Shown here one piece after another: positions 1,251 through 17,662 of a stretch of DNA of 21,882 nucleotides. The notes below the pieces were generated by a model. It had not been told where the DNA came from. It worked only from the letters and a program-made list of their open reading frames with translations, and ran no database searches. Location: NCBI GenBank assembly GCA_016235455.1, contig JACRKZ010000092.1, positions 1-21,882 of the forward strand. Direction: 5' to 3'. A program made the translations under genes and the position numbers. Source of the stretch: Armatimonadota bacterium. Lineage in GTDB: Bacteria > Armatimonadota > UBA10988. Each line of letters begins with the position of its first letter. Position 1 is the stretch's first letter.

Positions 1251-2021
1251 TCAGCGCCGCAGCATCGCCGCAGCGCTTTCGGCCACCCAGTAGCCGGGCA
1301 GGCCGTAGTGCCGATGGAGCAGTTGCTCGTACTCCGTTGTGATCGCGTCGCCGTCGCGGTACTCGGGCGCGTCCTTGATGGCGGCGCGAGGCAGGTGGAC
1401 GAAGACTTTGCGTTCGGTCCAACTGACCTGCTCGATCCAGCGCGGCGCGATGAGCACTCGCTTGCCGGGCCACCAGTTGAAGGTGTCGACGATCAGGTAG
1501 CGGATGGCCCAGGTCTGGTCATCGATGACGAAGTCGACCACATGGCCGATCTGACCGTCCTGGGCCTGGATATGGTGACCATGGACGTCGTTGGTGCTGC
1601 GCAGATAGGGGTCCCAGGCGTCCGCCGGCTCGGCCGGCGGCTCGGTCGGGTAGGGCTCACGCGGAATATAGTTGAACGGTCCCCACATCGATGAGCCCGA
1701 CCAGTAGACCGGCCAGCCGTAGTAGCCGTGGTAGGTCTCTTCGAACTGGCGCGACACAGGCTTGTCGGTGGCCAGCGCCGGGCTGTCCTCAATCTGCTTG
1801 CTGGTCAGCGCGACGACGATCCGTTGCTCGGCCTCCTGCACCTCCACCAGCGCATAAGGCGAGATGAGCACCTGCCGGTCGGTGAGCCAGGTGCCGGTAT
1901 CGGCCACCAGGTAGCGCACCGTCCAGTGCCGATCATCGAAGAAGAACTCGGCCACGGTGCCCATATGGCCGTCCAGGCTGGCCAAGGTGTATCCCTTGAG
2001 TGTGTTGGCTGTGCGTAACAT
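1251..2021 (-). CDS. Tandem PRC-barrel domain protein
   Basis: Two PRC-barrel-like repeats (DGHMGTVAEFFFDDRHWTVRYLVADTGTWL and DGQIGHVVDFVIDDQTWAIRYLIVDTFNWWPG) with HYGLPGYW near the end. ATG at 2021 preferred over the ORF-track start at 2138 because a purine-rich AGGAAG lies upstream. Confidence 0.88.
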   Translation of the reverse strand: MLRTANTLKGYTLASLDGHMGTVAEFFFDDRHWTVRYLVADTGTWLTDRQVLISPYALVEVQEAEQRIVVALTSKQIEDSPALATDKPVSRQFEETYHGYYGWPVYWSGSSMWGPFNYIPREPYPTEPPAEPADAWDPYLRSTNDVHGHHIQAQDGQIGHVVDFVIDDQTWAIRYLIVDTFNWWPGKRVLIAPRWIEQVSWTERKVFVHLPRAAIKDAPEYRDGDAITTEYEQLLHRHYGLPGYWVAESAAAMLRR

Positions 2022-2275
2022 GGTGGCGCGATCACTTCCTGAGGCAGCGGCGCTGCTCGACGGCGTCGAGCAGGCCATGGCTGCACACCCCCATGGTGCC
2101 GTGCCGACCCAGGGCCCGGCGCCATGGCAAGTCGCCATTCGGCCCCGTGGAAGACCGTAGATCGCACCTCAAAACGCTGCCTCGAGCGCTCGCTTGCGGC
2201 GCGCCTTTAGCGGCCGCGCGCCATCGGGCTACAAGGGTGACCTCGGCCGCCGATCGCGGCTGCCGAGCAGAGCAT

Positions 2276-2399
2276 GGCGACCATAGCTCAGTGGGTAGAG
2301 CACGCAACAGCGGTCCGCTCCAACTTGCCCGCGAGGGCTGATTGCAGACTGTTCTCGATTACAACGACGGGGTCGTGGGTTCGAATCCCACTGGTCGCC
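2276..2399 (+). ncRNA. tRNA-mimic Y RNA (YrlA-like) in canonical tRNA connectivity
   Basis: Acceptor stem GGCGACCA (2276-2283)/TGGTCGCC (2392-2399); TA linker; D arm GCTC-AGTGGGTA-GAGC (2286-2301); variable loop GGGTC; T arm GTGGG-TTCGAAT-CCCAC (2375-2391). The anticodon arm is replaced by about 67 nt containing CAACTTGCCC-GCGA-GGGCTGATTG. No CCA is encoded. It lies about 110 nt upstream of a Ro60 gene. Confidence 0.8.
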
Positions 2400-2401
2400 C
2401 T

Positions 2402-2473
2402 GGTGAGGGCTGAAGGGCTTGGGTTATCGCATGAACCGATGAACCCCCAGGCCCGCGCACTTGCCCTCACCTT
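2402..2473 (+). ncRNA. Second candidate Y RNA (conventional stem-loop topology, YrlB/Yrn-like)
   Basis: Helices GGTGAGGGC (2402-2410)/GCCCTCACC (2463-2471), GGGCTTGGG (2415-2423)/CCCAGGCCC (2446-2454) and ATCG (2426-2429)/CGAT (2437-2440). The junction GGGC-T-GAAG...CA-CTT-GCCC resembles the metazoan Y RNA Ro site GGUC-C-GAAG...CACUU-GACU. Confidence 0.68.
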
Positions 2474-2511
2474 CACGCCAATGGACATGCCCCACGAAAG
2501 GAGGGGCCAAG

Positions 2512-4125
2512 ATGCGCTACACACAGCACTACAGCAAGCTGAAGACGTCCCAGGCCAAGCCGCTCGCCGGCCGGGCCATGGTGGCCAACGACGCCGGCGG
2601 TTATGTCTTCGCCGTCAGCGACTGGACGCGCCTGCGGCGCTTCCTGATCCTCGGCAGCGAGGGCGGCACCTACTACGCCGGCGAGCGCGTCGTCACCATC
2701 GACAACGCCAAGGCGGTCGAACGGTGCCTGGCCGCCGACGGCCCGCGTGTGGTCCGCGAGGTGCTCGCGGTCAGCGAGGGCGGATGCGCGCCGCGCAACG
2801 ATCCGGCGCTGTTCGTGCTGGCGCTCTGCACCACCGGCGACGAGGCCACGCGGCGCGAGGCGTTCGCCGTCCTGCCGCGGGTGGCGCGTACCGGCACGCA
2901 CCTGTTCACCTTCGTGACCTACATGAAGGACCTGCGTGGCTGGGGCAAGCTGGCGCACCGTGGCCTGGCCCGGTGGTATGTCGAGCGCGACCTGCACGAC
3001 CTGGAGCTGCAACTGGCCAAGTACCAGGGCCGCTCGCAGGCCGGTGAGCGCTGGACACACCGCGACGTGCTGCGTAAGGCCCGGCCGAAGGTCGAGGCCG
3101 GACCGCGCAACGCCGCGCTGGCCTGGGCCGTGGGCCATGAGGCCGACCTGGACGGTCTGCCGCTGCTGGCCGCCGTCGAGGCGGTGCGGCATGCCGAGCG
3201 CGTGGACGACGTGGTGCGGCTCATCGAGACCGCGCACCTGCCGCGCGAGTGCGTGCCGACGCAGTGGCTGACCGAGCCGGCGGTGTGGCTCGCCCTGCTG
3301 CCGCAGATGCCGCCCATGGCGCTGCTGCGCAACTTGGCCAAGCTGGCCGGGCTGGGCCTGCTGGCTGGCCGGTCCGAGGCCTGCGAATGGGTGGCGAAGC
3401 GGTTCGCGCGCGAGTCGCTGCTCCGCGCGCGGCTGCATCCGCTGGCCATCCTGCTGGGTCTGCGACAGTTCGCCCAGGGCCGGGGCGACAAGGGCCGCCT
3501 GACCTGGCCGGTGGCGCCGCAGGTGGTGGACGTGCTCGGGCAGGCTTTCCACGACGCCTTCGCCGTGGTTGAGCCGACCGGACGGCGACTGCTGCTGGCG
3601 GTCGACTGCTCGGGCTCGATGGACGGCACCTACATCGCGGGCACGTCGCTGTCGGCGCGTGAGGCGGCCGGCGCGCTGGCCATGGTCACGGCGGCTGTGG
3701 AGCCGTCGTGCCAGGTGGTCGGCTTCACCGCGGGGCCGCACCGTGACCGGTACGGGTTCGGCAGCGGCCTGACCGCGCTGGACATCTCGGCCCGGCGGCG
3801 GCTCGACGACGTGCTGCGCGTCATGCGTGGCGTGCCGTTCGGCGGCACCGACTGCGCGCTGCCGATGCTCTGGGCAACCGAGCAGCGGCTGGCGGTCGAT
3901 GCGTTCGTCGTCATCACGGACAACGAGACCTGGGCGGGCAGCATTCACCCGACTCAGGCGTTGGCCGAGTACCGCCAGAAGACGGGCCTGCCCGCCAAGC
4001 TGGCGGTGATGGCGCTGACGTCCACGGGCTACAGCATCGCCGACCCGGACGATGCGGGCCAGATGGACATGGTCGGCTTCGACACCGCCACGCCGACGGT
4101 GCTGGCCGACTTCCTGCGGGGGTGA
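2512..4125 (+). CDS. rsr: Ro60/Rsr ribonucleoprotein (TROVE domain + VWA domain)
   Basis: ATG at 2512 follows AAAGGAGG. TROVE motifs NDAGGYVF, RLRRFLILGSEGGTYY, RTGTHLFTF, KY...WTHRDVLR, MALLRNL and RLHPL. VWA MIDAS DCSGSM, plus GGTDCALPM, ITDNETW and IADPDD...GFD. Confidence 0.95.
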   Translation: MRYTQHYSKLKTSQAKPLAGRAMVANDAGGYVFAVSDWTRLRRFLILGSEGGTYYAGERVVTIDNAKAVERCLAADGPRVVREVLAVSEGGCAPRNDPALFVLALCTTGDEATRREAFAVLPRVARTGTHLFTFVTYMKDLRGWGKLAHRGLARWYVERDLHDLELQLAKYQGRSQAGERWTHRDVLRKARPKVEAGPRNAALAWAVGHEADLDGLPLLAAVEAVRHAERVDDVVRLIETAHLPRECVPTQWLTEPAVWLALLPQMPPMALLRNLAKLAGLGLLAGRSEACEWVAKRFARESLLRARLHPLAILLGLRQFAQGRGDKGRLTWPVAPQVVDVLGQAFHDAFAVVEPTGRRLLLAVDCSGSMDGTYIAGTSLSAREAAGALAMVTAAVEPSCQVVGFTAGPHRDRYGFGSGLTALDISARRRLDDVLRVMRGVPFGGTDCALPMLWATEQRLAVDAFVVITDNETWAGSIHPTQALAEYRQKTGLPAKLAVMALTSTGYSIADPDDAGQMDMVGFDTATPTVLADFLRG

Positions 4126-4133
4126 GCCGCACA

Positions 4134-4167
4134 TCGTAGGGGCGACCAGGGCTGGTCGCTCCTACGA
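4134..4167. repeat. GTAG-type REP-like palindrome / probable bidirectional terminator between convergent genes
   Basis: TCGTAGGGGCGACCAG (4134-4149) and CTGGTCGCTCCTACGA (4152-4167) pair at 15 of 16 positions plus one G-U. Shares the GTAGGGGCGACC core with 7220-7325 and overlaps the VOC gene stop codon. Confidence 0.75.
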
Positions 4168-4590
4168 CGTGTTGGCCCAGTCCGTGTACCGCGTCTCCTC
4201 CGGCACGTCGGTGGGGCTCTCGAACTCCAGCCGGTACCCGTCGGGGTCGACCAGGTCGACCACCCACAGGCCGTTGCCCACGAACGGCTCGGCGCAAACG
4301 ACGCCACGGGCGGTGAACTCGTGGTACAACGCCAGCGCGTCGGCGCACATGAGGCACACCGTCACGCCCTCGCCCAGCCGGCCCGCGGGCCGCTGGTGGA
4401 ACTGCTGGAGCATGAGGCCCACGCCGTCGCGCTCCACCCGACACCAGCGCAACTCGCCGCCCGGCGACCAGTGCAGGGGCATGGCAAAGCCGAGGCCCTC
4501 GGTGTAGAACCGCGCCGAGGCCTGCATATCGGTCACGCCGAGGAACGGCACGGCTTCGCGCAGATTGGGCTGCTCGCCGGTGTCACTCAC
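4162..4590 (-). CDS. VOC/glyoxalase/bleomycin-resistance family protein
   Basis: Motifs AVPFLGVTDMQASARFYTEGLGF and DPDGYRLEF. GTG start at 4590 with GGAGGG RBS is preferred over the ORF-track start. Confidence 0.88.
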   Translation of the reverse strand: MSDTGEQPNLREAVPFLGVTDMQASARFYTEGLGFAMPLHWSPGGELRWCRVERDGVGLMLQQFHQRPAGRLGEGVTVCLMCADALALYHEFTARGVVCAEPFVGNGLWVVDLVDPDGYRLEFESPTDVPEETRYTDWANTS

Positions 4591-4630
4591 GGCCCGGCCC
4601 TCCATCTCCATGCCGCTGCATGGTTGCCTG

Positions 4631-5986
4631 TCAGATGCCGTAGAAGGCGTCGAGCCAGTCGGCCCAGCCGGACGGCGCGGCCCAGTCCTGCACACGGTAC
4701 GCGGCGCGCAGCAACGACCAGGCGTCGCTCGTGGTGGCGGGCGTGTTGTTGGGCAGGAACACGGCCAGGCCGTGCGAGCCGGCGTCCGAGGCGGCGCCGT
4801 TCACGTTGGTGTCGACATGCGCCTCGGCCACCAGCGCCGCGCTGACCGCCGCGGCCACCGCGTTGCCGGCGGTGGTGAGCTGGGCGTCGCCCGTGCCCGC
4901 CGCCACGCGCTCGGTGAAGTCGACCAGGTCCCTCATGCCTTCGTAGTCGGCTGGGTCGCCGCCAGCGTAGTCCTGCGTGTTGGCGCGCGCCGTGGCGATG
5001 GCGTTGTGGTACGCGCCGTCCTTGGCCACCAGCAGGTCGGCATAGGTGTTGGCGGCCGTGGCCACCGCGCCCAACGCACTGGTGCGGATGGCCGACTGGG
5101 TCAGGCTGCTCTGGGTGTGGTCGGCATAGGCCTGGGTCGCGTACAACCGCACGATGTCGCCGGCGACCTGCGCCGGCGTGCGGCTCGCATCGGCCATCAG
5201 CGGCGCCAGGATGGTCTGGTATGGGTAGCCTTCGTCCGGCGTCGCGTCCTCGCCGGCGACGACGTAGTCGCAGACGTTGCGCACGGCATAGGCCACTTCG
5301 GCCATCTGCATGTTGCAGGCGTCCATCATCAACAGGTCGATCTTGGTCGACGCGGTCAGCGCCGCGGCCATCTGCTCATTGTGCAGATAGGCCGAGTAAG
5401 TGTCCGAGTAGAGGATGCCGCGCGACACATTGGCGCCGGCGGTGCGGCCGATGGGCCGCCAGCCCGAGCCATGGTCCCACAGGTCGAGCGCGTAGTGGTC
5501 AGCGGGGTAGTTCGCCTGGCACCAGGCCACGAAGCTCTGCACCGTCGAGACCTGACCCATGTCCAGGTTGCCCAGGTCCGTGGCCTGGCCACCGCTGCTC
5601 TCGCTGGCCAGCAGCGACGACACGTAGGCATTGCGCGACGACGAGTGGTGAACGACGAAGCGGCGCGCGCGCGGCGCCGTGCTGCTCGCGCTGGGGAAGC
5701 CGCGCAGGCACTTCATCAGGCAGACCAGGTTGACTTCCGCGTTGTCGGGCAGCTGTTCGAGCTGGTCGAGGTTGAGCAGCGCGTCCTGCCACAGGTTGTT
5801 GTCGGCGTCGATGTACAGCATGATGGTCCACGCCGCGCGCGTGCCTCCGCCGCCACCGCCGTTGTTGTTGGTGCCAGAGGATCCGCCGCCGCAGGCGCCC
5901 ACCAGCGGCACCGCCGCCAGCGCCAGCAACATCGCCACCCGCTTGACATATCGTCCGAACCGGCTGCCGGTCGTCACCGAGTCCAT
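4631..5986 (-). CDS. Clostripain family (peptidase C11) cysteine protease, probable lipoprotein
   Basis: WTIMLYIDADNNL, YPADHYALDLWDHGSGW (catalytic His), DLLMMDACNM (catalytic Cys). Lipobox LVGA-C followed by a Gly/Ser/Asn linker. ATG at 5986 with a GAGGAG RBS. Confidence 0.9.
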   Translation of the reverse strand: MDSVTTGSRFGRYVKRVAMLLALAAVPLVGACGGGSSGTNNNGGGGGGTRAAWTIMLYIDADNNLWQDALLNLDQLEQLPDNAEVNLVCLMKCLRGFPSASSTAPRARRFVVHHSSSRNAYVSSLLASESSGGQATDLGNLDMGQVSTVQSFVAWCQANYPADHYALDLWDHGSGWRPIGRTAGANVSRGILYSDTYSAYLHNEQMAAALTASTKIDLLMMDACNMQMAEVAYAVRNVCDYVVAGEDATPDEGYPYQTILAPLMADASRTPAQVAGDIVRLYATQAYADHTQSSLTQSAIRTSALGAVATAANTYADLLVAKDGAYHNAIATARANTQDYAGGDPADYEGMRDLVDFTERVAAGTGDAQLTTAGNAVAAAVSAALVAEAHVDTNVNGAASDAGSHGLAVFLPNNTPATTSDAWSLLRAAYRVQDWAAPSGWADWLDAFYGI

Positions 5987-6088
5987 TGCACAACTCCTCA
6001 CCGTCTGGGGTCGAGCGCCCTGGCCTTGGTTACAGGCGCCGCATCCTCCAACGCCCACGGCACCAACCGGCTTCAGCCCAACCCGGCG

Positions 6089-7195
6089 CTAAGCCAGCGC
6101 GTGGTGCAGATGGTGCACGAAGGTCGCGTTGTCCGCCTGGACGTAGTGCAGGTCGCCGCCCATGCGCGCGTAGCTCTTGCAGAAGCGCAGGTAGTAGGCC
6201 GCACTGGTCTTGGGCGGTTCGCCCTGGGTCCAGTCCCAGCCGCCGCCGTCCTGCAGGTCGACCACATAGAGGCTGTGCCCGCTGACGATGGGCCGCCCGG
6301 CTTGCAGGCGCAGGTTGTTCACGCAGCTCAGGCTCTTCTCGAAGACTTGCGGTCCCATGATGGCTGTGCCCACCGACAGCACCACGCCTCCGTCCAGGCT
6401 GTCCACCGCGGCGCCGAACCGCGCGAAGTCGATGTTCGCCGCGCGTCCGACCGCCGCGCCGCTGTACCAAGGGTGGCAGGCGATGATGTCGTAACCGATG
6501 CCCGGGTGCACGGTCCACGGCACGCCGGCCGCATAGGCCTGCGCGGCGACGGAGGCGTGCCGGTAGCGGTGTGCCACGTTGACCCGGCCGTCGGGCAGGC
6601 TGGGCAGCCGGTGCCTGGCGGCCAGCAACTCGGCCACGCCCGGCAGCCGGGGGTCGTCGTCGCCCATCAGCGATATTTGCTCGCGCAGCTCCTCGGTGGT
6701 GGGCACATCGATGCCATCCTCGGCGATGAACCGCCCGATGGCCTGGCCATAGCCTTCGCCGCGCGTGCCGGCCACGAGCAGGGCCAGGTTGAGCGCATCG
6801 CCGGTCTCGCGCCAGGTGCCAAAGGTGCCCGTGGCCACGTTCTCGCGCACGCTCTCCGAGGTCTTGGCCTGCCACGAGAACTCCCAGTCGTGGATGGAGC
6901 CGGCGCCGTTGGTGGCCAGGTGGGTCAGCCAGCCGCCGCGCATCAGCTCGCCCAGCAACTGGCCCGCGCCATTGCGCAGCAGATGCGCGCCGTAGAGGAG
7001 CATGACGCCCGCGCCGCGCGCGCGCGCGGCACGGATGGCCTCGACGCACGAGGCGACCTGCGCCGCGCCGGCCTCGTTTATCGGGCCGGGCGCCGAGGCC
7101 GGGTCGATGAGCACATCCTCCAGCCGCGACAGATGGCGGCGCTCGGCGAGCGGGAAGACGCGGAGGTGAGAGAGGTCGATACGATCGCTGGCCAT
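6089..7195 (-). CDS. Uncharacterised protein with deoxyhypusine-synthase-like (DHS-like NAD-binding) fold
   Basis: Motifs GAHLLRNG...LTHLATNGAGSIHDWE, PWTVHPGIGYDI and GGVVLSVGTAIMGPQVFEK resemble DHS-like proteins as I recall them. ATG at 7195 with a GAGGT RBS. Confidence 0.6.
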   Translation of the reverse strand: MASDRIDLSHLRVFPLAERRHLSRLEDVLIDPASAPGPINEAGAAQVASCVEAIRAARARGAGVMLLYGAHLLRNGAGQLLGELMRGGWLTHLATNGAGSIHDWEFSWQAKTSESVRENVATGTFGTWRETGDALNLALLVAGTRGEGYGQAIGRFIAEDGIDVPTTEELREQISLMGDDDPRLPGVAELLAARHRLPSLPDGRVNVAHRYRHASVAAQAYAAGVPWTVHPGIGYDIIACHPWYSGAAVGRAANIDFARFGAAVDSLDGGVVLSVGTAIMGPQVFEKSLSCVNNLRLQAGRPIVSGHSLYVVDLQDGGGWDWTQGEPPKTSAAYYLRFCKSYARMGGDLHYVQADNATFVHHLHHALA

Positions 7196-7219
7196 GGTTA
7201 CCTCGACGGGACAAGGGCC

Positions 7220-7325
7220 CCCTCGTAGGGGCGACCCTCCGTGGTCGCCCCATGCCCGGCGCCGTACGCTGATGCGAGCTGACCGCGCGTGGCTGGGCGA
7301 CCACGGCGGGTCGCCCCTACGAGGG
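7220..7325. repeat. REPIN-like inverted doublet of GTAG-type REPs
   Basis: CCCTCGTAGGGGCGACCCTCCGTGGTCGCCC (7220-7250) and GGGCGACCACGGCGGGTCGCCCCTACGAGGG (7295-7325) match at 30 of 31 positions as an inverted pair. Each arm is itself a hairpin (GGGCGACC...GGTCGCCC) flanked by GTAG. Confidence 0.88.
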
Positions 7326-7406
7326 AGGCGTGCCTGTCCGGCAGTGTACACCAACCGGACAAGGACTCTGAGCGCACCCCGCGAACACGGCCGCGTGGAG
7401 TCCAAG

Positions 7407-10400
7407 ATGCGCTGTGGATGGATCCTCTTGCCGTTGCTCGTGAGCGCCTGTGCCGGCCAGCCGCCCGCCGACCCCAACGTGGTCACGCTGCCGCCTGGGC
7501 TGACCAGCCTCGGCGAGATCGGCCGCTTCCGCGTGGGCTGGCAGTCCTATGGCCAGCCGGCCGAATACATGCCCGACGGCTGGGTGGGCCACTTCGAGGA
7601 GCGCACCGGCGTCTCGTACAACCTGGGCGACTCGGTGCTCGGGCGCGAAGCCGTGCTGATGCATTCGCCCTGGCGTGTGCCGCCGGGCCGCACCTGCGTC
7701 GAGTTCCGGCTGCGGCTGCCGCGGGCAACGCCCATCACCTTCACTACGGGCATCACCATGAACCCCTACAGCATGGAGCCCGAGCACAGCGATGGCGTGA
7801 CGTTCAGCGCCTACCTGGTCGATGGCGCCGAGAAGCAGTTGTTCCGGGAGCACTACGCCAAGGCTGAGTGGAAGGACCTGACCTTCGACCTGTCGGCCTC
7901 CGCGGGCCGCGACGTGACGCTGCGTCTGCAGGTCGAGCCCGGCCCGGCCAACAGCCCCAGCTTCGACTTCTCCTACTGGAGCCGGCCGGTCATCCAGTGC
8001 GGCACGACCACCGGCCCAGGCGAGGACCGTGTGGCCAGGCTGCTGGCCAAGCCTGCCTATCGCGCGGTGGCTGGCCGGAGCCTGGTGACGTTGGCCAACC
8101 GGCCGGGCGAGGCACAAGGCATCGCTCCGTCCACGTTCCTGCCCGCCGAGACCAGCGTCAGCGCCCAAGGCGGCACGTTCTGGCTCAGGAGCAAGGCCGC
8201 GGACGCGAGTGTGGCCTACATCTGGCAGCCGGCGACCGGCACGCTTGACGACATCACGGCCAAGGTGGACGATGGCACCGAGTTGCATCCCTGCGCCGGT
8301 GGTGGCGTGACCTTTGCCGTCGGCGACAAGCTCGTCTCTGGCCGCGGCGGTCGGTGCACGGCCTCGAGCGTGGACGCGAACGGCCGGACCGTGCGCATCG
8401 AGTGGCAGTATCCCGCCGAGCAGGGCGGCGCCACCGTGGTCTGGACGTTGGGTATCGTCGGCCGCGCACTGACCGTCCGGGCCGAATGCGCCCAGCCCAA
8501 GGTCGCCGGTCTGTCGCTGGGCCAGGTGACCGGCGCGGCGCTACGCCGGCGGCTGGCTGTGCCGTACCTGCTGGGCAACCTGGACTATCTGCCGGCCGAC
8601 GCGCTCTACTCGGGTCGGTACCTGGACTGGACCGTGAGCCATGCGTCCACTTGCCCGCAAGGCGAAGCCAGCTACCACGCCCTGACCGACGGCACGCGCA
8701 ACACGCTGCTGGAGTCGGGTTACGTAACGCTCACGCCGCACGTGGCCGAGGCGTTGCCCAACCTGCCGCATCCCGTCTCGCCCTATGTGGCGTTGCTCGG
8801 CCCGAAGGTCATGCTCGACATCTGGGGCCACCGCGACAACACCTACGCCGGCGATGCCCGGCTGCTGCGCGAGCTCAAGGACAACGGCGTCGACCACGTG
8901 GCTATCATCCAGCACGACTGGCAGCGCTGGGGCTACGACGCCAAGCTGCCCGACCACCTGCCGGCCAACCCGGCCTACGGTGGCGACCCGGCCATGATCG
9001 AGTTCGGCCGGGCGGCGCGTGACTGCGGCTATGTGTGGTCGCTGCACGAAAACTACATCGACCTCTACCCCGACGCACCGTCGTACGATCCGGCCGCGCG
9101 CGTGCTCCAGTCAGATGGCAAGCCGTCGCCGGCCTGGTACAACTCTGGCACGAAGGTGCAGAGCTACGGGCTCAAGAGCAACCGCGCGCTGGGCTATGCC
9201 AAGGCCGTCGCGCCCGAGGCGCATCGGCGCTACGGCACCAACGCCGCCTACCTCGACGTGCACACCTGCGTGCCGCCCTGGCATCAGCTCGACCATGAGG
9301 CGGGTCAGCCACTGGCCGGCATGGCGCTGGCCAAGGTCAAGAACGACACGGCGCTGTTCCAGTTCATGCGTGACTCCCACGAGGGTCCCATGTTCGGCGA
9401 GGGCAACAACCAGTTCTACTGGGCCGGCCGCTGCGACGGCGTGGAGGCGCAGGTGGAAGGCGGCGAGGACCATCGGCCGTTCCTCGACTTCGACCTGCTG
9501 CGGCTGCACCCGCAAATGGTCAACCACGGCATGGGCTACTACGAGCGCTGGTTCCGCCAGGGCTACGACGCGAACTTCGGCCAGAACGTCGGTACGCCGG
9601 TCGATATGGACCGCTACCGCGCGCAGGAAGTGGCCTACGGCCACGCCGGCTTCATCGGCAACGCCCTGACCGGCAACGTCAACCACGTGGTCAAGGAGCA
9701 CCACCTGATGCACGCCGTGCAGGCGCTGTCCGGCACGGCCAAGGTCACGGCCATCGAATACGGCGTCGGCGACCGCTTCGTCGACGCGTCCATCGCCTTG
9801 GCGGTGACCGACACGCGGCGCCAGCGCATCCGCTATCACAGCGGCCTGACGGTGTGGGTCAACTGGGCCGAGCAGCCCTGGACCGTGGACGGCCACACGC
9901 TGCCGCAATGGGGCTGGCGCGCGGCCGGGCCCGGCACCGAGGTGGCCACCGAACTGCGCGACGGCAAGGTGGCCGACACCGCGCTGACGCCCGAATACAC
10001 CTATGTCGACGCGCGCACCTGGTTCCCCGCGCCGTATGTCAACCGGCCGCGCGACATCGAGCCGAAGCTGCGGTCGCTCAAGGATCTGGGCGACGGCCGC
10101 GTGGAGATCACCTATGAGTGGAAGGTCGGCGAGAAGCTGAGCGAGGACTACAACTGCTTCGTGCACTTCAACAACGTCGCGGCCGACCAGTGGGGCGGTG
10201 ACGACATCGTCTTCCAGCACGACCATGCGCTGCCCCGGCCGACCAGCGCCTGGCAGCCCGGCGAGACCATCGTCGACGGGCCGCATATCCTCACCGTGCC
10301 GGCCGGCAAGTACAACAGCTACGACGTGACCATCGGCCTGTGGAAGACCGGTCGCCTGAACCTCAAGGGCATTCGCGCCACGCGCGAGCGCATCCTCATC

Positions 10401-10784
10401 GGCCGGCTCGGCGTGAAGCAGGAGGGCGGCAAGGTGGTCGCCGTGACCAGCCTGCCCGTCACCGCGGCGGACGACGCGATCGGCAAGACGCCGGACTGGG
10501 ACGAGCGCGTCTATCCCGCGGCGACCACGGTCACCTGCGGCGACGTGCGCACCAACGGCTCGGTCAAGCTGGTCAAGGAGTCGGCGCGGCGCTGGGTGGT
10601 CTATCCGTACCCGCGGGACCGGGCTTTCCAGATCGGCCTGAAGGTGGCGCCGACGGCCAAGGTGGCGGCCCTGGCCGCGCTGACTGGCGCGGAGCTCGGC
10701 GCGGTACCGGCCAAGACTGACGGCGGCTGGCTGACGTTCGACGCGGGCAAGGTAGGGGCCGGTCGGTACGTCGTGACGTGGTGA
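7407..10784 (+). CDS. Large secreted/lipoprotein glycoside-hydrolase-like protein (DUF5696/GH101/GH129-like barrel with accessory beta domains)
   Basis: ATG at 7407 with GGAG RBS and lipobox LVSA-C. Central motifs HDWQRWGYD, LHENYIDLYPDA, AYLDVHT and FGEG. N-terminal SDGVTF...WKDLTFDLSASAGRDVTLRL carbohydrate-binding-like domain. C-terminal FVHF...QHDH...WQPGETIVD domain. Family assignment is inferred. Confidence 0.65.
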   Translation: MRCGWILLPLLVSACAGQPPADPNVVTLPPGLTSLGEIGRFRVGWQSYGQPAEYMPDGWVGHFEERTGVSYNLGDSVLGREAVLMHSPWRVPPGRTCVEFRLRLPRATPITFTTGITMNPYSMEPEHSDGVTFSAYLVDGAEKQLFREHYAKAEWKDLTFDLSASAGRDVTLRLQVEPGPANSPSFDFSYWSRPVIQCGTTTGPGEDRVARLLAKPAYRAVAGRSLVTLANRPGEAQGIAPSTFLPAETSVSAQGGTFWLRSKAADASVAYIWQPATGTLDDITAKVDDGTELHPCAGGGVTFAVGDKLVSGRGGRCTASSVDANGRTVRIEWQYPAEQGGATVVWTLGIVGRALTVRAECAQPKVAGLSLGQVTGAALRRRLAVPYLLGNLDYLPADALYSGRYLDWTVSHASTCPQGEASYHALTDGTRNTLLESGYVTLTPHVAEALPNLPHPVSPYVALLGPKVMLDIWGHRDNTYAGDARLLRELKDNGVDHVAIIQHDWQRWGYDAKLPDHLPANPAYGGDPAMIEFGRAARDCGYVWSLHENYIDLYPDAPSYDPAARVLQSDGKPSPAWYNSGTKVQSYGLKSNRALGYAKAVAPEAHRRYGTNAAYLDVHTCVPPWHQLDHEAGQPLAGMALAKVKNDTALFQFMRDSHEGPMFGEGNNQFYWAGRCDGVEAQVEGGEDHRPFLDFDLLRLHPQMVNHGMGYYERWFRQGYDANFGQNVGTPVDMDRYRAQEVAYGHAGFIGNALTGNVNHVVKEHHLMHAVQALSGTAKVTAIEYGVGDRFVDASIALAVTDTRRQRIRYHSGLTVWVNWAEQPWTVDGHTLPQWGWRAAGPGTEVATELRDGKVADTALTPEYTYVDARTWFPAPYVNRPRDIEPKLRSLKDLGDGRVEITYEWKVGEKLSEDYNCFVHFNNVAADQWGGDDIVFQHDHALPRPTSAWQPGETIVDGPHILTVPAGKYNSYDVTIGLWKTGRLNLKGIRATRERILIGRLGVKQEGGKVVAVTSLPVTAADDAIGKTPDWDERVYPAATTVTCGDVRTNGSVKLVKESARRWVVYPYPRDRAFQIGLKVAPTAKVAALAALTGAELGAVPAKTDGGWLTFDAGKVGAGRYVVTW

Positions 10785-11785: not shown

Positions 11786-14700
11786 CTACCAGTACGTGAA
11801 TTCATAGGGATCCGCCAGATTCAGGGTCGTGTCGTAGAAGGAGGGCCCACGTGCCTCTTGCGAGGCCAGCCGCGTCGGGTCCCAGCCGGCGCGCGACAGG
11901 TTGGCCCAGAAGCCAAAGCCCTTGCCGCCCGAGCCGACCTTGAGCGTGATGATGTTATCGCCGGCGCGCAGGTCGACGTCCACCTGATGCCGGTTGGCCC
12001 GCGGCGAGCCGTGGCCGGTGGTCACTTCGTAGACCGGCTGGCCATTGACCCAGGCTGCCAGCCAGTAGTCCACGCCCAGCCGCAGTCGCGCCTTTCGCGC
12101 CTGGTCGGCCTTCACGTGGCAGACCGCGAAGCTGGTCGACGACAGCTTGCCACCGAGGTCGACGAAGCCATGCTCGTCGGCCTGGGCCACGTGCCAGGTC
12201 GGGCCGTTGCGACCGGCGACGGCGTCGGCCTGTTCGGGAATCACAGCGCCGATCAGGCTGGGTCCGTCGTCCTTGGCCTGAGCGAACGGGCCGAGCACCT
12301 GCCAGCGGGTCAGCTCGTCGTAGCCGGCGCCGGCTTGGAGGGTGCACAGGCGCTGCGCGACCTCGGGCGCGAGTCGCGCGCCGGCGTTGGTGCCGATCTG
12401 TGCGGCCAGCGTCGCGAGCCGCGCGCGGCTCAGCCGAATTGCATCTCGGCGCGCGGCGTCGTCCACGTAGCGGGGGGCGAGCAGCGCCGGATCGGCGGCC
12501 AGCCACACGTCATTCCCGCGCACCAGCGCCAGCCCGCCCAGCAGAACCGTGCTGCCCGCCGGCTGCCCGGTCGGGTCGTAGGCCGGTGTGCGGAGCCCAT
12601 CACGCCAGCGCAGCAGGCTGGTGTCAACCCCGCGCAGCAAGGGATGGCCGTCGAGCGGCACGCGCCATAGCTCGCGCTCGGACAGCTTGAGGCCGCCCGC
12701 GGCCGCGGCCGGATGCACCGTGTAGGCCGGCGTCGGCGCCAGGGCGCGCTGGCACTCCGCCAGCAGGTTGGCCGCCAGTCGCGTGGCGCCAGGGTCGACG
12801 CCCACGCGGTCGGTCAGGTCCAGCGAGCAGCAGGTGATACGCCCCTTGCCATGCCGCAGATGCAGCAGCGGCGTGTAGGCCAGGTCGAACTCGCAGGACA
12901 ACACCGGCGTGAAGCCCACCACCTGCGGGATCTCGAACACCGTCGAGGCCACCGCGCCGGTGTTGGTCCAGCGCGGCGCGCGCGGCCCGTCGTAGTCGCG
13001 GGCCATCTTCCCTTCGGGCAGCAGGTCGGGCGAGCCGCGCCAGTTGATCAGGTCCTCGGGCGCGATGCCGGCCAGGATCGGGCTCTGGGCATCGCGCGCA
13101 AAGACATAGCGCGTCATCGTCTCGACGTTGCGGAAGCCCAGCCCTTCCCAGATCTCGGGCTTCTGCTCCAGGATCAGCACACGGTGGCCGGCCTGGATGT
13201 CCGCGCTGGTATACGGCAGCGCCATGCCCGGCTCGAGCGCCTCGCGGCCGATGACCAGCAGGCTGTCGGCCGGCCTGGGCTGGCCCGGCTGCCACAGCGT
13301 CGGCCGGATGCCCAGCGCCTCGATCCAGGCGCGTGAGCGGCCGCGGGGGTCCCACAGCGCGACCTTGCCCGCCGGCTGGGGCAGCAGGCGCGGATGGATC
13401 TGGACGGGCAGCGTGTCCGTCGCGACGACCTTGCCGCCGTCTTCGACCCTCAACTCCAGCCGCGCGGCCAGACGCTGCGCCGCGGCTGGCGCGGTGACCG
13501 CGAAGGGCAGGAGCTTGATGTCGCCGGCGGAGACATCGATGGCCAGTTGACCGTTCCCGAGGGTCTTGTCGCCCGCGACCAGCGACCAGCGCGCCGTCAG
13601 GCGGCGCCGGCCGGGCCCGTCCCAGACCACCGCCACCTGCTTGTCGATGCGCTCGCCTGACCAGTAGGCGTGCGACTTGTCGGTGAACTTGGGCGCGCCG
13701 GCCAGGTAGGCCAGCAGCGGCTGGTTGTCGGGCGCATAGATATCGAAGTTGGCGTTGGCCCAGTCGGGCCGCCTGGTCACGGGCTCACGGAGTGCGGCGT
13801 AGCGGTTGAACACATTGCCCGCGTAGCCCGGCGGGTCGCCGTAGCCGAGGCCGAAGTTCCACCACTGCCAGCCGCCATTGACGCCCCAGGTGCGCCAGGC
13901 GCGCGTGGTGTTGCGCACGAACAGCCGCTGGAACTCCCAGTAGCCGGGCCACTGCTTGAGATCCACCTTGTCGAACGCGCCGTGGCCACTTACGTTGGCC
14001 AGGCTAAGCTCGATGATCTTCTTCTGGCCTGCCTCGCTCTCCCAGGCATAGGCCTGCGGGCCGAAGTACATGGCCAGATACTCGGTCAGCAGGAACTGCT
14101 TGCCCTTCCAGAAGTTGGCCGTATACGGCTCGCCAAACTCAACCGCGGAGTAGGGCATGTTGCCCGACGCGGCCCACCGCGACGGCCAGTCCTCGCGCTC
14201 TTGCAGCGGCACGAAATTGAGGTACGAGTTGGCCGTGGACAGATCGCCCGTGCTGCCGTCGGCATGGGAGAAGGCCAGCCGCGTCGGGTCGTGCTGCCGC
14301 GTCACCCGACAGGCGTACTCGATGGCGCGCGCGTTCCCGTTCTTGTCTTCCGCCGGCCGATGACCCATGCCGTCGGCGTGGATGTTGGTCCGCGGGCAAT
14401 AGGTGTTCATGCCCACGGCATAGGCGAAGACGCTCGGATGGTTGCGCACGAAACGCAGATGGTAGGCCATCTCGCGGTCGTAGTCGGCCTGGAGCTGCTT
14501 GTCGGTCAGCAGGCTGGGCTTGAGATTGCTCATGCCGGGCACGGGCAGCGTGGCGCCGCAGCCGTTCTCGTCGAGCGCCGCCAGCGTGGCCTCGTCGAAG
14601 ATCGGCGTCTCCGACCAGTTGCCCCACCAGGCGCTGGGGTTGGGCTGCCACTGGAAGACGTTGAAGCCAAGCAGCCGGAAGAACGACAGCGAGGTCGGCG

Positions 14701-15646
14701 TCAGCCCCGAGTTGGCCCAGGTCAGCCGCCAGCGCATGTCGTGGCCGTTGAGCAGCAGACGACGGCCCTCGGTCCACACCTCGCGGAAGCCGAACCTCAC
14801 CGGCTCGGCCTGGTCGGCCACCTGGCCACGCAGCGATGCCGTGCAGCTATACAGGTACGGCGCCTCCAGCTCCCACAGCCGGACGTCGGGCCAGGCTTTG
14901 GTCAGCCGATGGGTCGAACGGCCCGCGGGCAGGGCGACAGCCGGCAGGTCGAGCGCCAGCGCCGGCTGGCCGGCGGTCTGCGTGATGTCGGCATGGAGCG
15001 CCGCCTGCGTGGCCGCGGTCGCCTCGACCTCCACCTGCACGGTCAGCTCGTGCTTCCGCTGTGAGGGGATGACGAAGACGTCTGTGATCGCCGCCGCCTT
15101 GGGCCGCGCGCGGATCGTCACCGGCGCGGTGATGCCCAACGGCCACTGGTCGGGCGTGAGCTTGTCATGCCGTGTCAGGTAGCGCAGCGGGTCGTGCGCG
15201 AAGTCGCGCGAGATGCCCGTGTAGTCGCGTGTCAGGAACACCGTCAACCGGTTCTCACCAGCCTTGACCGCGGTATCGAGAGCCACCTCGCCGCCGGGCC
15301 GCAGCAACTCGCCGAGTCGCTGGCCGTTGAGGAAGACGACGGCATCGCCCTCGATGCGGCGGAAGTCGGCCACGACGTGCCGGCCCTGCGGGTCGGCGAG
15401 CGTGGTGAAGACCTGCTCGTACCACAGCGAGTGCACCTGGCCGCGCGGCGTCTTGGCCCAGGCCTGGCCGGGCGCCGTGGGTGCGGTGCCGCGCCAGTCG
15501 CGCGCGGGCATGGTGCCCCAGGCGTCCGGTTGGGGCGGCGTGTCCGGCGACACCGCGACCTGCACCCGCCAGACCTCGGCCAGGGCCAGGTTCCAGCGCG
15601 GCGGCGCGTCGGTCGCGAGCAATGCGGTCAGCAGCAGGGGGATCAT
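11786..15646 (-). CDS. Glycoside hydrolase family 2-like multidomain secreted protein
   Basis: ATG at 15646 with GGGAG RBS and signal-like MIPLLLTALLA. GH2 hallmarks AVVFLNGQRLG, GITAPV, RLWELEAPYLY, RFGFREVWTEGRRLLLNG, RNHPSV, HDPTR and EFG. C-terminal domain with WVNG...GDNIITLKV. Confidence 0.85.
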   Translation of the reverse strand: MIPLLLTALLATDAPPRWNLALAEVWRVQVAVSPDTPPQPDAWGTMPARDWRGTAPTAPGQAWAKTPRGQVHSLWYEQVFTTLADPQGRHVVADFRRIEGDAVVFLNGQRLGELLRPGGEVALDTAVKAGENRLTVFLTRDYTGISRDFAHDPLRYLTRHDKLTPDQWPLGITAPVTIRARPKAAAITDVFVIPSQRKHELTVQVEVEATAATQAALHADITQTAGQPALALDLPAVALPAGRSTHRLTKAWPDVRLWELEAPYLYSCTASLRGQVADQAEPVRFGFREVWTEGRRLLLNGHDMRWRLTWANSGLTPTSLSFFRLLGFNVFQWQPNPSAWWGNWSETPIFDEATLAALDENGCGATLPVPGMSNLKPSLLTDKQLQADYDREMAYHLRFVRNHPSVFAYAVGMNTYCPRTNIHADGMGHRPAEDKNGNARAIEYACRVTRQHDPTRLAFSHADGSTGDLSTANSYLNFVPLQEREDWPSRWAASGNMPYSAVEFGEPYTANFWKGKQFLLTEYLAMYFGPQAYAWESEAGQKKIIELSLANVSGHGAFDKVDLKQWPGYWEFQRLFVRNTTRAWRTWGVNGGWQWWNFGLGYGDPPGYAGNVFNRYAALREPVTRRPDWANANFDIYAPDNQPLLAYLAGAPKFTDKSHAYWSGERIDKQVAVVWDGPGRRRLTARWSLVAGDKTLGNGQLAIDVSAGDIKLLPFAVTAPAAAQRLAARLELRVEDGGKVVATDTLPVQIHPRLLPQPAGKVALWDPRGRSRAWIEALGIRPTLWQPGQPRPADSLLVIGREALEPGMALPYTSADIQAGHRVLILEQKPEIWEGLGFRNVETMTRYVFARDAQSPILAGIAPEDLINWRGSPDLLPEGKMARDYDGPRAPRWTNTGAVASTVFEIPQVVGFTPVLSCEFDLAYTPLLHLRHGKGRITCCSLDLTDRVGVDPGATRLAANLLAECQRALAPTPAYTVHPAAAAGGLKLSERELWRVPLDGHPLLRGVDTSLLRWRDGLRTPAYDPTGQPAGSTVLLGGLALVRGNDVWLAADPALLAPRYVDDAARRDAIRLSRARLATLAAQIGTNAGARLAPEVAQRLCTLQAGAGYDELTRWQVLGPFAQAKDDGPSLIGAVIPEQADAVAGRNGPTWHVAQADEHGFVDLGGKLSSTSFAVCHVKADQARKARLRLGVDYWLAAWVNGQPVYEVTTGHGSPRANRHQVDVDLRAGDNIITLKVGSGGKGFGFWANLSRAGWDPTRLASQEARGPSFYDTTLNLADPYEFTYW

Positions 15647-15665
15647 CGACGGCTCCCGGCTCACT

Positions 15666-15694
15666 AGGATGGCCGATGCGCGCGACGGTGTCCA
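15666..15694 (-). promoter_or_regulatory. Possible sigma70 promoter of the GH2-like gene
   Basis: Minus strand TGGACA-N17-CATCCT, ending about 20 nt before the ATG. Confidence 0.35.
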
Positions 15695-15740
15695 GCGGGG
15701 GCGCGGCGCAGTACACTGAGCGCCAGAGCGCAAGATGCTG

Positions 15741-16011
15741 GTTGTACCGGCTTGGGCCGAAGGGCGCTTCCACTCGGCGGTGGCAGTCTCCCGCGCCGAT
15801 GACCGGCAACGCTGACGCCGGTACGCTGAGCCAGCAGAGCTGGCTGCATCTCCAGATTGGCAGTGGTCCGCAGGACCATCGTTGGCCACCGGTCCGCCGC
15901 GATGTCGATCTGCGGCTACGCCTCCGGCCGATGCCAATCTGGAGATTGGCGTACCGGCACGGGCGGCACTGACCGGACAATGGAAGCGCCATTCGGCCAA
16001 AGCCGGCACAA
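15741..16011. repeat. Second copy of the composite repeat element, with different nested REP cargo
   Basis: Outer arms GTTGTACCGGCTTGGGCCGAAGGGCGCTTCCA (15741-15772) and TGGAAGCGCCATTCGGCCAAAGCCGGCACAA (15981-16011). Inner inverted pairs GCCGGTACGC (15817-15826)/GCGTACCGGC (15949-15958) and ATCTCCAGATTGGCA (15848-15862)/TGCCAATCTGGAGAT (15932-15946). Confidence 0.85.
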
Positions 16012-16042
16012 AGAACATGATCTGCTGCGACGGGTGGCCTGC

Positions 16043-17662
16043 ATGGCGGAGCGAGACCAGTGGGTGGCGGAGTTCCTGGCGCATATCGCGGCGCTCGACC
16101 TGCCACGTCACCACTACATCCGCCTGCCCGACCGCGACCTGCTGCTCACCGCCGACCTGCGCGGCATCCTGCGCGCCGAACTGGACACCTGGCTGGCGCG
16201 CCGACTGCTCGACCTGGACACCGCCGACGCGCTGGATCTGGCGCGTGCCGTGCGCGAGGCCGCACGCGCCGCGGTCGAGCCGCTGGCCGAGGCGGAGGAG
16301 GCCCGCATCGCCCGCTGGCAGGCGCCGCGCGCGGCCGTCGAGGAGTTCTGGTGTGTCACGCTCGACCGCGTGCCCGAGTCGTTGCACGCCGAGATCGCCG
16401 GCAACGCCGCGCAGCGCCAGGCCTGGGCCGCGCTGTATGGCGACGATCGGCTCAACCTGCACGCCATGGTCGATACGCGACTGTTCGGCGCTGAGTTCAC
16501 GCAGCGGCTGCTGACCACGCTCGGTGATGCGCCGCCCGACGGTACCGTCTATCACGGCGACAACCACGACGCGCTGGCGCACCTGGCCGGTGAGCTGGCC
16601 GGGCGCGTGCGCTGCATCTACCTCGACCCGCCCTACAACACGGGCAACGAGGCCTTCACCTACCGCGACAGCTACCAGCGCACGGTCTGGCGGACGATGA
16701 TGACCGAGCGCCTGACCGCCGCGCGCGAGATGCTGGCCACGGACGGCGCGGTGTTCGTGAGCATCGACAACAACGAGCAGGCCCGGCTGCGGCTGCTCAT
16801 GGACGAGGTGTTTGGCGAGCGCAACTTCGTCGAGACGTTCCTCTGGACCCGCACCAAGACGCCGCCCGCGCTGGCCGCCAAGTCGCGCAAGACCGTCGAG
16901 TTCGTGCACTGCTACGAGCGGCGCCTGTCGTCGACGCCGTACCGCGGCCGACCGCTGGACAACGGCGACGCGCCGCTGCTCAACACAGGCAACCGCGAGC
17001 GCGAGCTGACCTTCCCCGCCGGCAGCATCCTCACGTCGCTGCCCGACGGCGAGTATGCGCCCGGCCCGCGGGGCAAGGTGGAACTGCTGACCGCCGCGAC
17101 AGTGGCCGACGGCCGGATCGTCAATGCCATCACGGTGCGCGGCCCGTTCAAGTGGCAGCAGTCGTTCCTCGATGCCGAGCTGGCCGGCGGCACGACGCTG
17201 CTGGTGCGCACGGCGGCCTTCTCGATGCGTTTCCAACGGCCCGACCGCGGCCGCTGCAAGCCGCCCGGCAACCAGCTCGACGCCGACCTGCCCAGCGACG
17301 TGGGCACCAACGAATCAGCCTCGGCCGAGCTGCGCGCCATGGGCTTGAGCGGCTTCTCGTACCCCAAGCCGGTGTCGCTGGTGGCCGCGCTGGTGCGTAT
17401 GAACACTGGCGCGGGCGACATCGTGCTCGACTTTTTCGCCGGCTCGGGCACCACCGGCGCGGCGGTGCTCGCGCTCAACCGCGCCGACGGGCTGGGCCGG
17501 CGCTATGTGCTGGCCGAGCTGGGCGACCATGTCGACACCGTGCTGCTGCCGCGGCTGATCAAAGCCGTCTACGCCGCGGAGTGGCGCGACGGCCGGCCGC
17601 TGCCGGGCACGGGCGTCAGCCATGTGTTGCGCGTGGTGCGGCTGGCGCGGTTCGAGGAGTGA
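16043..17662 (+). CDS. Site-specific DNA amino-methyltransferase, beta class, type III R-M Mod-like; no res gene adjacent
   Basis: YHGDN, CIYLDPPYNTG (DPPY at 16625-16636), FVSIDNNE, LLMDEVFGERNF, a target-recognition region, FSYPKP and VLDFFAGSGTTG (from 17429). The catalytic motif precedes the SAM-binding motif. Start uncertain. Confidence 0.9.
   Translation: MAERDQWVAEFLAHIAALDLPRHHYIRLPDRDLLLTADLRGILRAELDTWLARRLLDLDTADALDLARAVREAARAAVEPLAEAEEARIARWQAPRAAVEEFWCVTLDRVPESLHAEIAGNAAQRQAWAALYGDDRLNLHAMVDTRLFGAEFTQRLLTTLGDAPPDGTVYHGDNHDALAHLAGELAGRVRCIYLDPPYNTGNEAFTYRDSYQRTVWRTMMTERLTAAREMLATDGAVFVSIDNNEQARLRLLMDEVFGERNFVETFLWTRTKTPPALAAKSRKTVEFVHCYERRLSSTPYRGRPLDNGDAPLLNTGNRERELTFPAGSILTSLPDGEYAPGPRGKVELLTAATVADGRIVNAITVRGPFKWQQSFLDAELAGGTTLLVRTAAFSMRFQRPDRGRCKPPGNQLDADLPSDVGTNESASAELRAMGLSGFSYPKPVSLVAALVRMNTGAGDIVLDFFAGSGTTGAAVLALNRADGLGRRYVLAELGDHVDTVLLPRLIKAVYAAEWRDGRPLPGTGVSHVLRVVRLARFEE

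Follow-up and report, generated by a model that had tools for sequence, protein, structure and literature searches.

Two predicted Y RNAs with mirrored Rsr sites, one in native tRNA order, upstream of rsr in an Armatimonadota bacterium

Why does one short motif recur in opposite strand order just upstream of a gene for a Ro60 orthologue? The locus that raises this question lies in a window of 21,882 bases, the whole stretch of DNA that was analyzed, from an Armatimonadota bacterium. A first-pass annotation had claimed that two Y RNAs stand there in tandem and share one Rsr module in opposite connectivity. Comparison with other rsr loci supports this claim: two element families track rsr, and the helices of the site covary. 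Judged from sequence, the segment 2277-2471 very likely specifies two non-coding Y RNAs, a native-order mimic of the YrlA class followed by a hairpin of the YrlB/Yrn2 type, both of them predicted partners of the Rsr encoded downstream. The unusual feature of the locus is the native tRNA order of the first RNA, not the tandem pair. A tandem of tRNA-like RNA and hairpin with a shared Ro site is known biology, because it has been reported in Chen 2014 and Wang 2018.

Layout and predicted structures of the two RNAs

The gene rsr (2512-4125, plus strand) encodes a Ro60 orthologue of 537 amino acids. Matches of its product to the Pfam families vWA_Ro60 (4.2e-59) and TROVE (1.4e-28) identify it as Rsr, and it is 44-52% identical to the Rsr proteins of 15 relatives. 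A Shine-Dalgarno-like GGAGG was read from the sequence at 2500-2504 (plus strand), 7 nt before the ATG at 2512. Both RNAs are encoded on the strand of rsr; 112 nt separate the end of RNA 1 from the start codon of rsr, and 40 nt separate it from the end of RNA 2. According to excerpts of Chen 2014 (PMC4201824), genes of the YrlA class share the strand of rsr and are found no more than about 4 kb from it, which holds for RNA 1 too. Downstream of rsr follow an 887-aa ORF without a Pfam family (4565-7228), a 1196-aa ORF with DUF5696 (7194-10784), a minus-strand ORF of 1816 aa with a glycosyl hydrolase 2 domain (11786-17236) and an ordinary tRNA-Ser (GCU) gene (17750-17840).

RNA 1 (2277-2399, plus strand, 123 nt) is a tRNA-like Y RNA in native tRNA order. 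Its acceptor stem of 7 bp (2277-2283/2392-2398) is followed by the discriminator base C2399, and between its two strands come the D arm (2286-2301) and, further 3', the T arm (2375-2391). The nucleotides that build the elbow of a tRNA can be recognized in the sequence, namely U8, A14, G18G19, G15 with C48, and the T loop UUCGAAU; the tRNA-like D and T arms with a conserved elbow that mark the YrlA class are therefore present. In place of the anticodon loop stands an arm of 65 nt, which ends in ACUUGCCC-GCGA-GGGCUGA. The Ro/Rsr site, read from the sequence in closed topology at 2323-2341 (plus strand), comprises ACUU (2323-2326), the helix GCCC 2327-2330/GGGC 2335-2338 closed by the loop GCGA (2331-2334), the bulged U2339, and G2340 and A2341. 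This bulged helix, with GCCC facing GGGC, one bulged U, and GA opposite UU, would form the loop-capped tip of an extended anticodon arm. The molecule would then run from the 5' strand of the acceptor through the D arm, the long arm, a variable hairpin and the T arm to the 3' strand of the acceptor.

The tRNA model of Rfam matched RNA 1 from end to end with 47.3 bits and an insert of 65 nt. ARAGORN called no tRNA in RNA 1 and saw no anticodon arm, and the 5-bp anticodon stem, the 7-nt loop and the anticodon of an authentic tRNA are lacking in it. The Rfam model of YrlA (RF02553) scored 15.7 bits on RNA 1, below its gathering cut-off of 69. Weak Rfam matches (E up to 10) were taken as chance; they were Plastid-ycf2, psbI-rps4 (on the T arm, reverse strand), mir-25 on RNA 2, P5 and an S4 leader.

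RNA 2 (2402-2471, plus strand, 70 nt) is a hairpin Y RNA resembling YrlB and Yrn2. A terminal stem of 9 bp (2402-2410/2463-2471) is followed by the bulged U2411, by G2412 and A2413, and by an upper stem of 9 bp (2415-2423/2446-2454). UUAUC stands at 2424-2428, and ACUUGCCC forms the 3' strand at 2459-2466. RNA 2 thus has the long end-to-end stem with a Ro-site bulged helix that is typical of hairpin Y RNAs, and its 5' and 3' ends would pair into the same candidate Rsr site. No Rfam family was matched by RNA 2 at threshold.

Folding was proposed as a check in the first-pass annotation, and it came out differently for the two RNAs. The hairpin of RNA 2 is markedly stable (MFE -40.8 kcal/mol, z -5.13; none of 200 shuffles was as stable). 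The unconstrained MFE of RNA 1 (-48.2 kcal/mol) has a weak z of -1.74 and is not a cloverleaf; constrained to the cloverleaf plus the GCCC/GGGC helix, RNA 1 folds at -45.0 kcal/mol, 3.2 kcal/mol above the MFE. The extension stem of RNA 1 is irregular.

The repeated motif itself was found as claimed. The window holds just two copies of GAGGGCTGA, at 2333-2341 and 2405-2413 of the plus strand; 0.30 matches were expected from shuffling, and two copies were reached in 3 of 100 shuffles. ACTTGCCC is likewise present at 2323-2330 and 2459-2466, and it has two further, unrelated sites in the window (8649 and 21758); 0.8 matches were expected, and four copies arose in 1 of 100 shuffles. The order of the strands also agreed with the claim: at the DNA level RNA 1 reads ACTTGCCC-GCGA-GGGCTGA and RNA 2 reads GGGCTGA...ACTTGCCC, that is, as RNA, ACUUGCCC-GCGA-GGGCUGA in the former and GGGCUGA...ACUUGCCC in the latter. 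The notion that the two RNAs have nothing else in common did not hold at the level of their families. A motif of the type (G)GUUAUC follows the GGGCCG strand at a distance of a few nucleotides in both families; RNA 2 has it in intact form (2424-2428), RNA 1 in degenerate form. The two RNAs are separated by the spacer CU (2400-2401, plus strand), which follows the discriminator of RNA 1 and leads directly into the terminal stem of RNA 2. RNA 2 had been said to start 2 nt after the acceptor stem; the distance is right when counted from the discriminator base 2399, whereas the acceptor stem ends 3 nt before RNA 2. Taken together, the sequence evidence supports the reading of RNA 1 and RNA 2 as two Y RNAs with a predicted Rsr site in mirrored strand order.

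Families of both RNAs at rsr loci

A pattern scan gave 80 named rsr loci from many phyla, and the source set for the models comprised 98. A search for the motifs at homologous rsr loci, also proposed in the annotation, was rewarding, as both element families recur there. The native-order form was sought in rsr loci with a regular expression that called for a D arm, a T arm 62-135 nt further on and at least 6 of 7 acceptor pairs. It returned 77 long-insert elements from 48 sources, with a GGGCCG-like strand in 67 of the 77 and a UUAUC-like motif in 69. Alignment A2 took in 72 of them and left out L004:4297-4402, L009:943-1085, L078:7414-7567, L078:7230-7383 and L086:3772-3931. Its consensus runs from CYUUGCCYG through a short loop, CGGGCCGNNGG, GGUUAUC, a variable hairpin and AGGUC to the T arm, and RNAalifold recovered the acceptor, D, capped Ro and T helices from the 72 relatives.

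A covariance search with model R1 placed 111 elements of at least 100 nt, from 59 of 98 sources, above the first ordinary tRNA. RNA 1 scored 92.1 bits, a value high by construction since RNA 1 itself belongs to the seed. It is the sole long R1 match in the home genome of 6.5 Mb; the other 33 matches are tRNA-sized and reach at most 60.6 bits. In the model-fitted alignment of R1, 94.1% of cells were paired versus 73.4% in shuffles, and the covariation score was 0.527 versus at most 0.092 with slid partners; fitting to models, as was done for alignments A3 and A5, favors pairing. Pairing reached 96.8% in the capped Ro helix, where 4 of 5 pairs show changes in both partners, and 82.5% in the extension stem, where all 9 pairs do. 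For the extension stem of RNA 1, as for the upper stem of RNA 2, covariation was assessed on model-fitted alignments because MAFFT left both stems unresolved. The cap beyond the modelled helix measures no more than 12 nt in 88 of the 111 elements. Six matches whose caps exceed 25 nt were removed, so that 105 native-order elements remained. L020:3418-3590 (76 bits) was rejected as a native-order element; it is an artefact of register across two canonical permuted YrlAs.

Among 61 genomes (the window's own and 60 relatives), 17 had an Rsr match. R1 matched at E<=1e-15 in 12 of the 61, and these were 12 of the 17 Rsr-positive and none of the 44 Rsr-negative genomes; the association is given as a description and without a statistical test because related genomes are not independent. 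Of the 19 R1 matches in whole genomes, 17 directly precede rsr and have its orientation. The native-order form was present in 45 of the 80 named rsr loci, among them 11 of 12 loci of Armatimonadota, 14 of 19 of Myxococcota, 7 of 12 of Gemmatimonadota, 9 of 18 of Chloroflexota and 2 of 7 of Verrucomicrobiota, and in none of 6 of Alphaproteobacteria and 2 of Planctomycetota. These counts per phylum are lower bounds, as many loci are incomplete, and the phyla were taken from record titles. The regular expression for permuted YrlA also matches tandem native-order copies with short spacers, and its count is an upper bound. The native-order form is probably a widespread variant. Because the Rfam model of YrlA misses this form, found at 45 of 80 loci, Y RNAs are probably under-annotated.

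Several loci showed further arrangements. L009:943-1085 is a native-order tRNA-like element whose insert is a 75-nt AT-rich near-perfect hairpin and not a Ro-site arm; a repeat may have inserted there, or the copy may have decayed. The same-strand rule is broken at L078:6946-7567 (minus strand), where four tandem native-order Y RNAs downstream of rsr are encoded on the strand opposite to it. A third architecture was seen in L031:5978-6107, L034:4565-4689, L034:3604-3732 and L093:3490-3628. Here D arm, anticodon-like stem-loop and T arm follow one another in the native order inside an open Ro stem, which takes the place of the acceptor and not of the anticodon. This architecture may be Yrn1-like.

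The acceptor stem of some relatives deserves mention. Of the 105 native-order Y RNAs, 17 have a G3:U70 wobble, and 13 of them combine it with A73 (examples are L023:2148-2253, L042:3373-3480, L021:3032-3148, L025:3630-3738 and L080:997-1099). G3:U70 with A73 is the identity set of alanine tRNA and is used by tmRNA as well. The occurrence of this set in the sequences suggests that some native-order Y RNAs may be charged. RNA 1 has G3-C70 and the discriminator C73.

The hairpin family was seeded by a regular expression for Y stems in open topology, which required the motifs and 9 of 9 terminal pairs and yielded 74 candidates from 39 sources. The terminal 9-bp pairing in this seed is not evidence because it was a criterion of selection. 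The element UGGGUUAUC was nearly invariant in 35 aligned hairpins, though it had not been used in the selection, and within the GGUUAUC motif T23 and A25 were invariant and G21, T24 and C27 conserved to at least 90%. L085:2199-2276, a GGGCTG match without UUAUC, and L076:5707-5771 were excluded from alignment A4. Model R2 gave 156 matches in rsr loci at E<=0.01. It scored 57.2 bits on RNA 2, again by construction as RNA 2 is in the seed, and its only match in the 6.5-Mb home genome was RNA 2. In the model-fitted alignment of R2, 84.2% of cells were paired versus 63.7% in shuffles; the terminal helix, evaluated on 150 matches in that alignment, was 96.0% paired, and 8 of its 9 pairs had changed in both partners.

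RNA 2 was also found in a relative of about 92% identity, known from metatranscriptome and DNA contigs of bioreactor data. It differs there at five positions (2430, 2432, 2433, 2436, which is deleted, and 2457), all of which are unpaired in the fold, where 18 of 70 positions are unpaired. Another relative's hairpin, L009:1094-1163, scored 39.4 bits against ceN72-3, an sbRNA family of Rfam whose gathering score is 38 bits. This match and the near-invariant (G)GUUAUC fit uneasily with the stated non-homology of bacterial and eukaryotic Y RNAs.

One base of the shared site sets the window apart. The bulge base between GGGC and G is U in both RNA 1 and RNA 2, an exception, as relatives carry C: C was counted in 110 of 111 native-order (closed) and 148 of 150 open-stem relatives. 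The Rsr-recognition motif of the YrlA class is GNCGAAN0-1G in excerpts of Chen 2014 (PMC4201824); RNA 1 and RNA 2 both read GCUGA and depart from this consensus at the position of the C. The U is retained in the relative of about 92% identity, in which RNA 2 is unchanged over 2400-2429. The Rsr of the window differs from 14 or 15 of the 15 relatives at 19 otherwise conserved positions, among them R92C, R149H, L186V, L189K, H191R, Y320F and Y347H, and the substitutions L186V, L189K and H191R cluster in the HRDLLRLxHP motif. It is speculation to tie the U in both RNAs to these window-specific substitutions. A common change from C to U in both would reflect co-evolution with an altered Rsr pocket, an idea that we consider possible, if somewhat short of probable. 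The paired change offers a natural specificity variant with which the reading of the bulge by Ro60 could be tested.

Transcription, processing and rival readings

The two RNAs and rsr would be transcribed together. RNase P would cut at 2277 and RNase Z after C2399; the latter cut would release RNA 1 and at the same time create the 5' end of RNA 2, and RNA 1, once freed, would gain CCA. Each RNA could then occupy the outer Y-RNA site of Rsr and tether the protein to a different partner, which, by analogy with YrlA and Yrn1, might be a tRNA-elbow-binding protein or PNPase.

Some observations bear on this scheme. A scan of 1950-4400 revealed neither a sigma-70 promoter nor an intrinsic terminator. 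RNA contigs of the relative run continuously from RNA 2 into rsr, with the reservation that DNA may be carried over into RNA libraries. An RNase Z gene is present in the genome (339 bits, above the cut-off), and neither RNA 1 nor any of 7 inspected tRNAs has an encoded CCA. With the enzyme present and CCA not encoded, a cut by RNase Z after C2399 would be expected from established tRNA biology. Support for processing at 2400-2401, the predicted point of RNase Z or 3' cleavage, is indirect. Among native-order elements, 26 are followed by a Y stem within 55 nt, and in 7 of these, the window's included, exactly 2 nt lie between discriminator and stem. RNA contigs X12 and X14, from two studies of the close relative, start at 2400 with no loose end, a weak hint of processing, while the DNA contig X9 and the RNA contig X8 of the relative cross 2400, and one X14 contig overlaps the break at 2400 by 30 nt, as a branch in an assembly graph would. 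The relative's runs (n = 4) cover the region from 2371 on; the sequence upstream diverges and is uninformative for RNA 1.

Could 2277-2511 be nothing but a structured 5' leader of rsr, through whose motif or motifs Rsr regulates its own synthesis with no separate stable RNAs being made? The position of RNA 2, which ends so close to the start codon, the contigs that continue into rsr, and the absence of a terminator between RNA 2 and rsr would all agree with such a leader. The relatives of the two RNAs, however, can form tandem arrays of several copies, found upstream as well as downstream of rsr and not at a fixed distance from it, an arrangement that fits a pure leader poorly. Moreover, RNA 1 possesses a full 7-bp acceptor stem and a tRNA elbow, which are substrates of RNase P and RNase Z. 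In M. smegmatis, excerpts of Chen 2014 (PMC4201824) describe YrlA and YrlB as encoded upstream of rsr and transcribed as one precursor; the Y RNAs at this same position are processed to stable RNAs, YrlA being cleaved by RNase P and gaining CCA. We therefore regard the pure leader as unlikely. Co-transcription with rsr and processing are mutually compatible, and the preferred reading of two Y RNAs accommodates both.

The end-to-end match to the tRNA model of Rfam might instead betray an ordinary tRNA gene with an intron or insertion, or a decaying pseudogene, with the motif match in RNA 2 arising by chance, and in L009:943-1085 an AT-rich hairpin insert does replace the Ro motif. Both sequence and pairing of the insert are nevertheless conserved over 111 elements from at least 6 phyla, and at rsr loci only. 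The 65 nt are too short for a bacterial group I intron, no intron family of Rfam was matched in RNA 1, and no anticodon arm was seen by ARAGORN. This explanation is hardly credible. It is also very improbable that RNA 1 is a native-order repair cofactor of the b7a-tRNA kind that works with RNA ligases independently of Rsr binding. RNAs of that kind are strongly like real tRNA and are occasionally adjacent to Rsr according to excerpts of Wang 2018 (bioRxiv 10.1101/312249). RNA 1, however, contains the Rsr-site module, no Band-7 family was detected among the six window ORFs scanned, and no RNA-repair gene adjoins rsr; RtcB is encoded on another contig (C97), outside the window. Two Y RNAs, one of them in native tRNA order, remain the preferred reading.

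Possible origin and comparison with known RNAs

Bacterial Y RNAs are thought to be derived from tRNA. In excerpts of Wang 2018 (bioRxiv 10.1101/312249), most YrlA RNAs resemble circularly permuted tRNAs with a loop-closed acceptor stem, and dimeric tRNA transcripts are the favored origin. The native-order form would open a simpler route than a dimeric tRNA: a tRNA gains a Ro-binding anticodon arm, a tandem duplication follows, and the copies come to be read in the alternative register. At L020:3341-3670, two canonical permuted YrlAs with 7-bp acceptor-like hairpins stand in tandem, and a native-order unit forming 6 of 7 acceptor pairs emerges if the first YrlA's D arm is combined with the T arm of its successor. 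Permutation by duplication fits this locus because its tandem YrlAs are also readable in the native register. Both registers can coexist there, which illustrates how tandem duplication may interconvert the topologies.

As a joint reading of these data, we tentatively propose, while leaning slightly toward doubt, that the native-order tRNA mimics are a widespread undescribed class of Y RNA, with a capped Ro helix on the anticodon arm and a tRNA-like maturation, and that they form a missing link between tRNA and Y RNA. Such RNAs would be matured by RNase P, RNase Z and the CCA-adding enzyme and would keep a free acceptor end, and their tandem arrays would have given rise to canonical permuted YrlA by permutation through duplication. 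What Ro60 displays would be altered by the native-order form, namely a tRNA mimic with a real acceptor end, processable by tRNA enzymes and perhaps chargeable. If this were true, aminoacylated members would place a charged tRNA mimic on Ro60.

No description of a native-order Y RNA was found in the literature within our scope; supplements and reviews beyond it may list one, and a prior description is possible because the excerpted text of Wang 2018 mentions the native-order b7a-tRNA as occasionally lying beside Rsr. The b7a-tRNA, compared here by the description in excerpts of Wang 2018 alone (bioRxiv 10.1101/312249), has the native order and is said to be encoded occasionally beside Rsr, both of which recall RNA 1. 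It is described as strongly like real tRNA, belongs to RNA-repair neighborhoods and is associated with Band-7 and an RNA ligase, whereas no SPFH/Band-7 family was detected among the six window ORFs scanned, and RtcB lies outside the window.

The hairpin Y RNAs, among them YrlB of S. Typhimurium and M. smegmatis, Yrn2 of D. radiodurans, the metazoan Y RNAs and the nematode sbRNAs, resemble RNA 2 in the long stem formed by their ends, in the bulged helix GGNC-N-GA/UU-GNCC and in the UUAUC motif. RNA 2 differs from them in the U at its bulge and in its apical loop, which is not the small pyrimidine-rich loop described in Chen 2014 (PMC4201824).

With YrlA (RF02553), RNA 1 shares tRNA-like D and T arms that are nearly invariant, a location next to rsr in the same orientation, and a hairpin Y RNA as partner. 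Both also have a strand of the GNCGAA type in the Rsr site, followed by a YUAY/UUAUC element that opens the variable hairpin. YrlA, however, is permuted: its T arm precedes the D arm, a loop joins the two strands of its acceptor stem, and the molecule begins and ends in the Ro stem. In RNA 1 the order is native, the acceptor stem is open and the Ro helix is capped by GCGA, so that the permutation characteristic of YrlA is absent. Circularly permuted tRNA genes and two-piece tmRNA likewise present one fold in two circular permutations, but they differ from the Y RNAs in serving other functions and in lacking a Ro60 site.

The processed YrlA of M. smegmatis has, like RNA 1, an acceptor stem of 7 bp with free tRNA-like ends. 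There, the acceptor ends arise by cutting of the closed loop, resulting in a two-piece RNA that has ends in the Ro stem too, whereas RNA 1 is the one-piece form directly encoded by a single gene.
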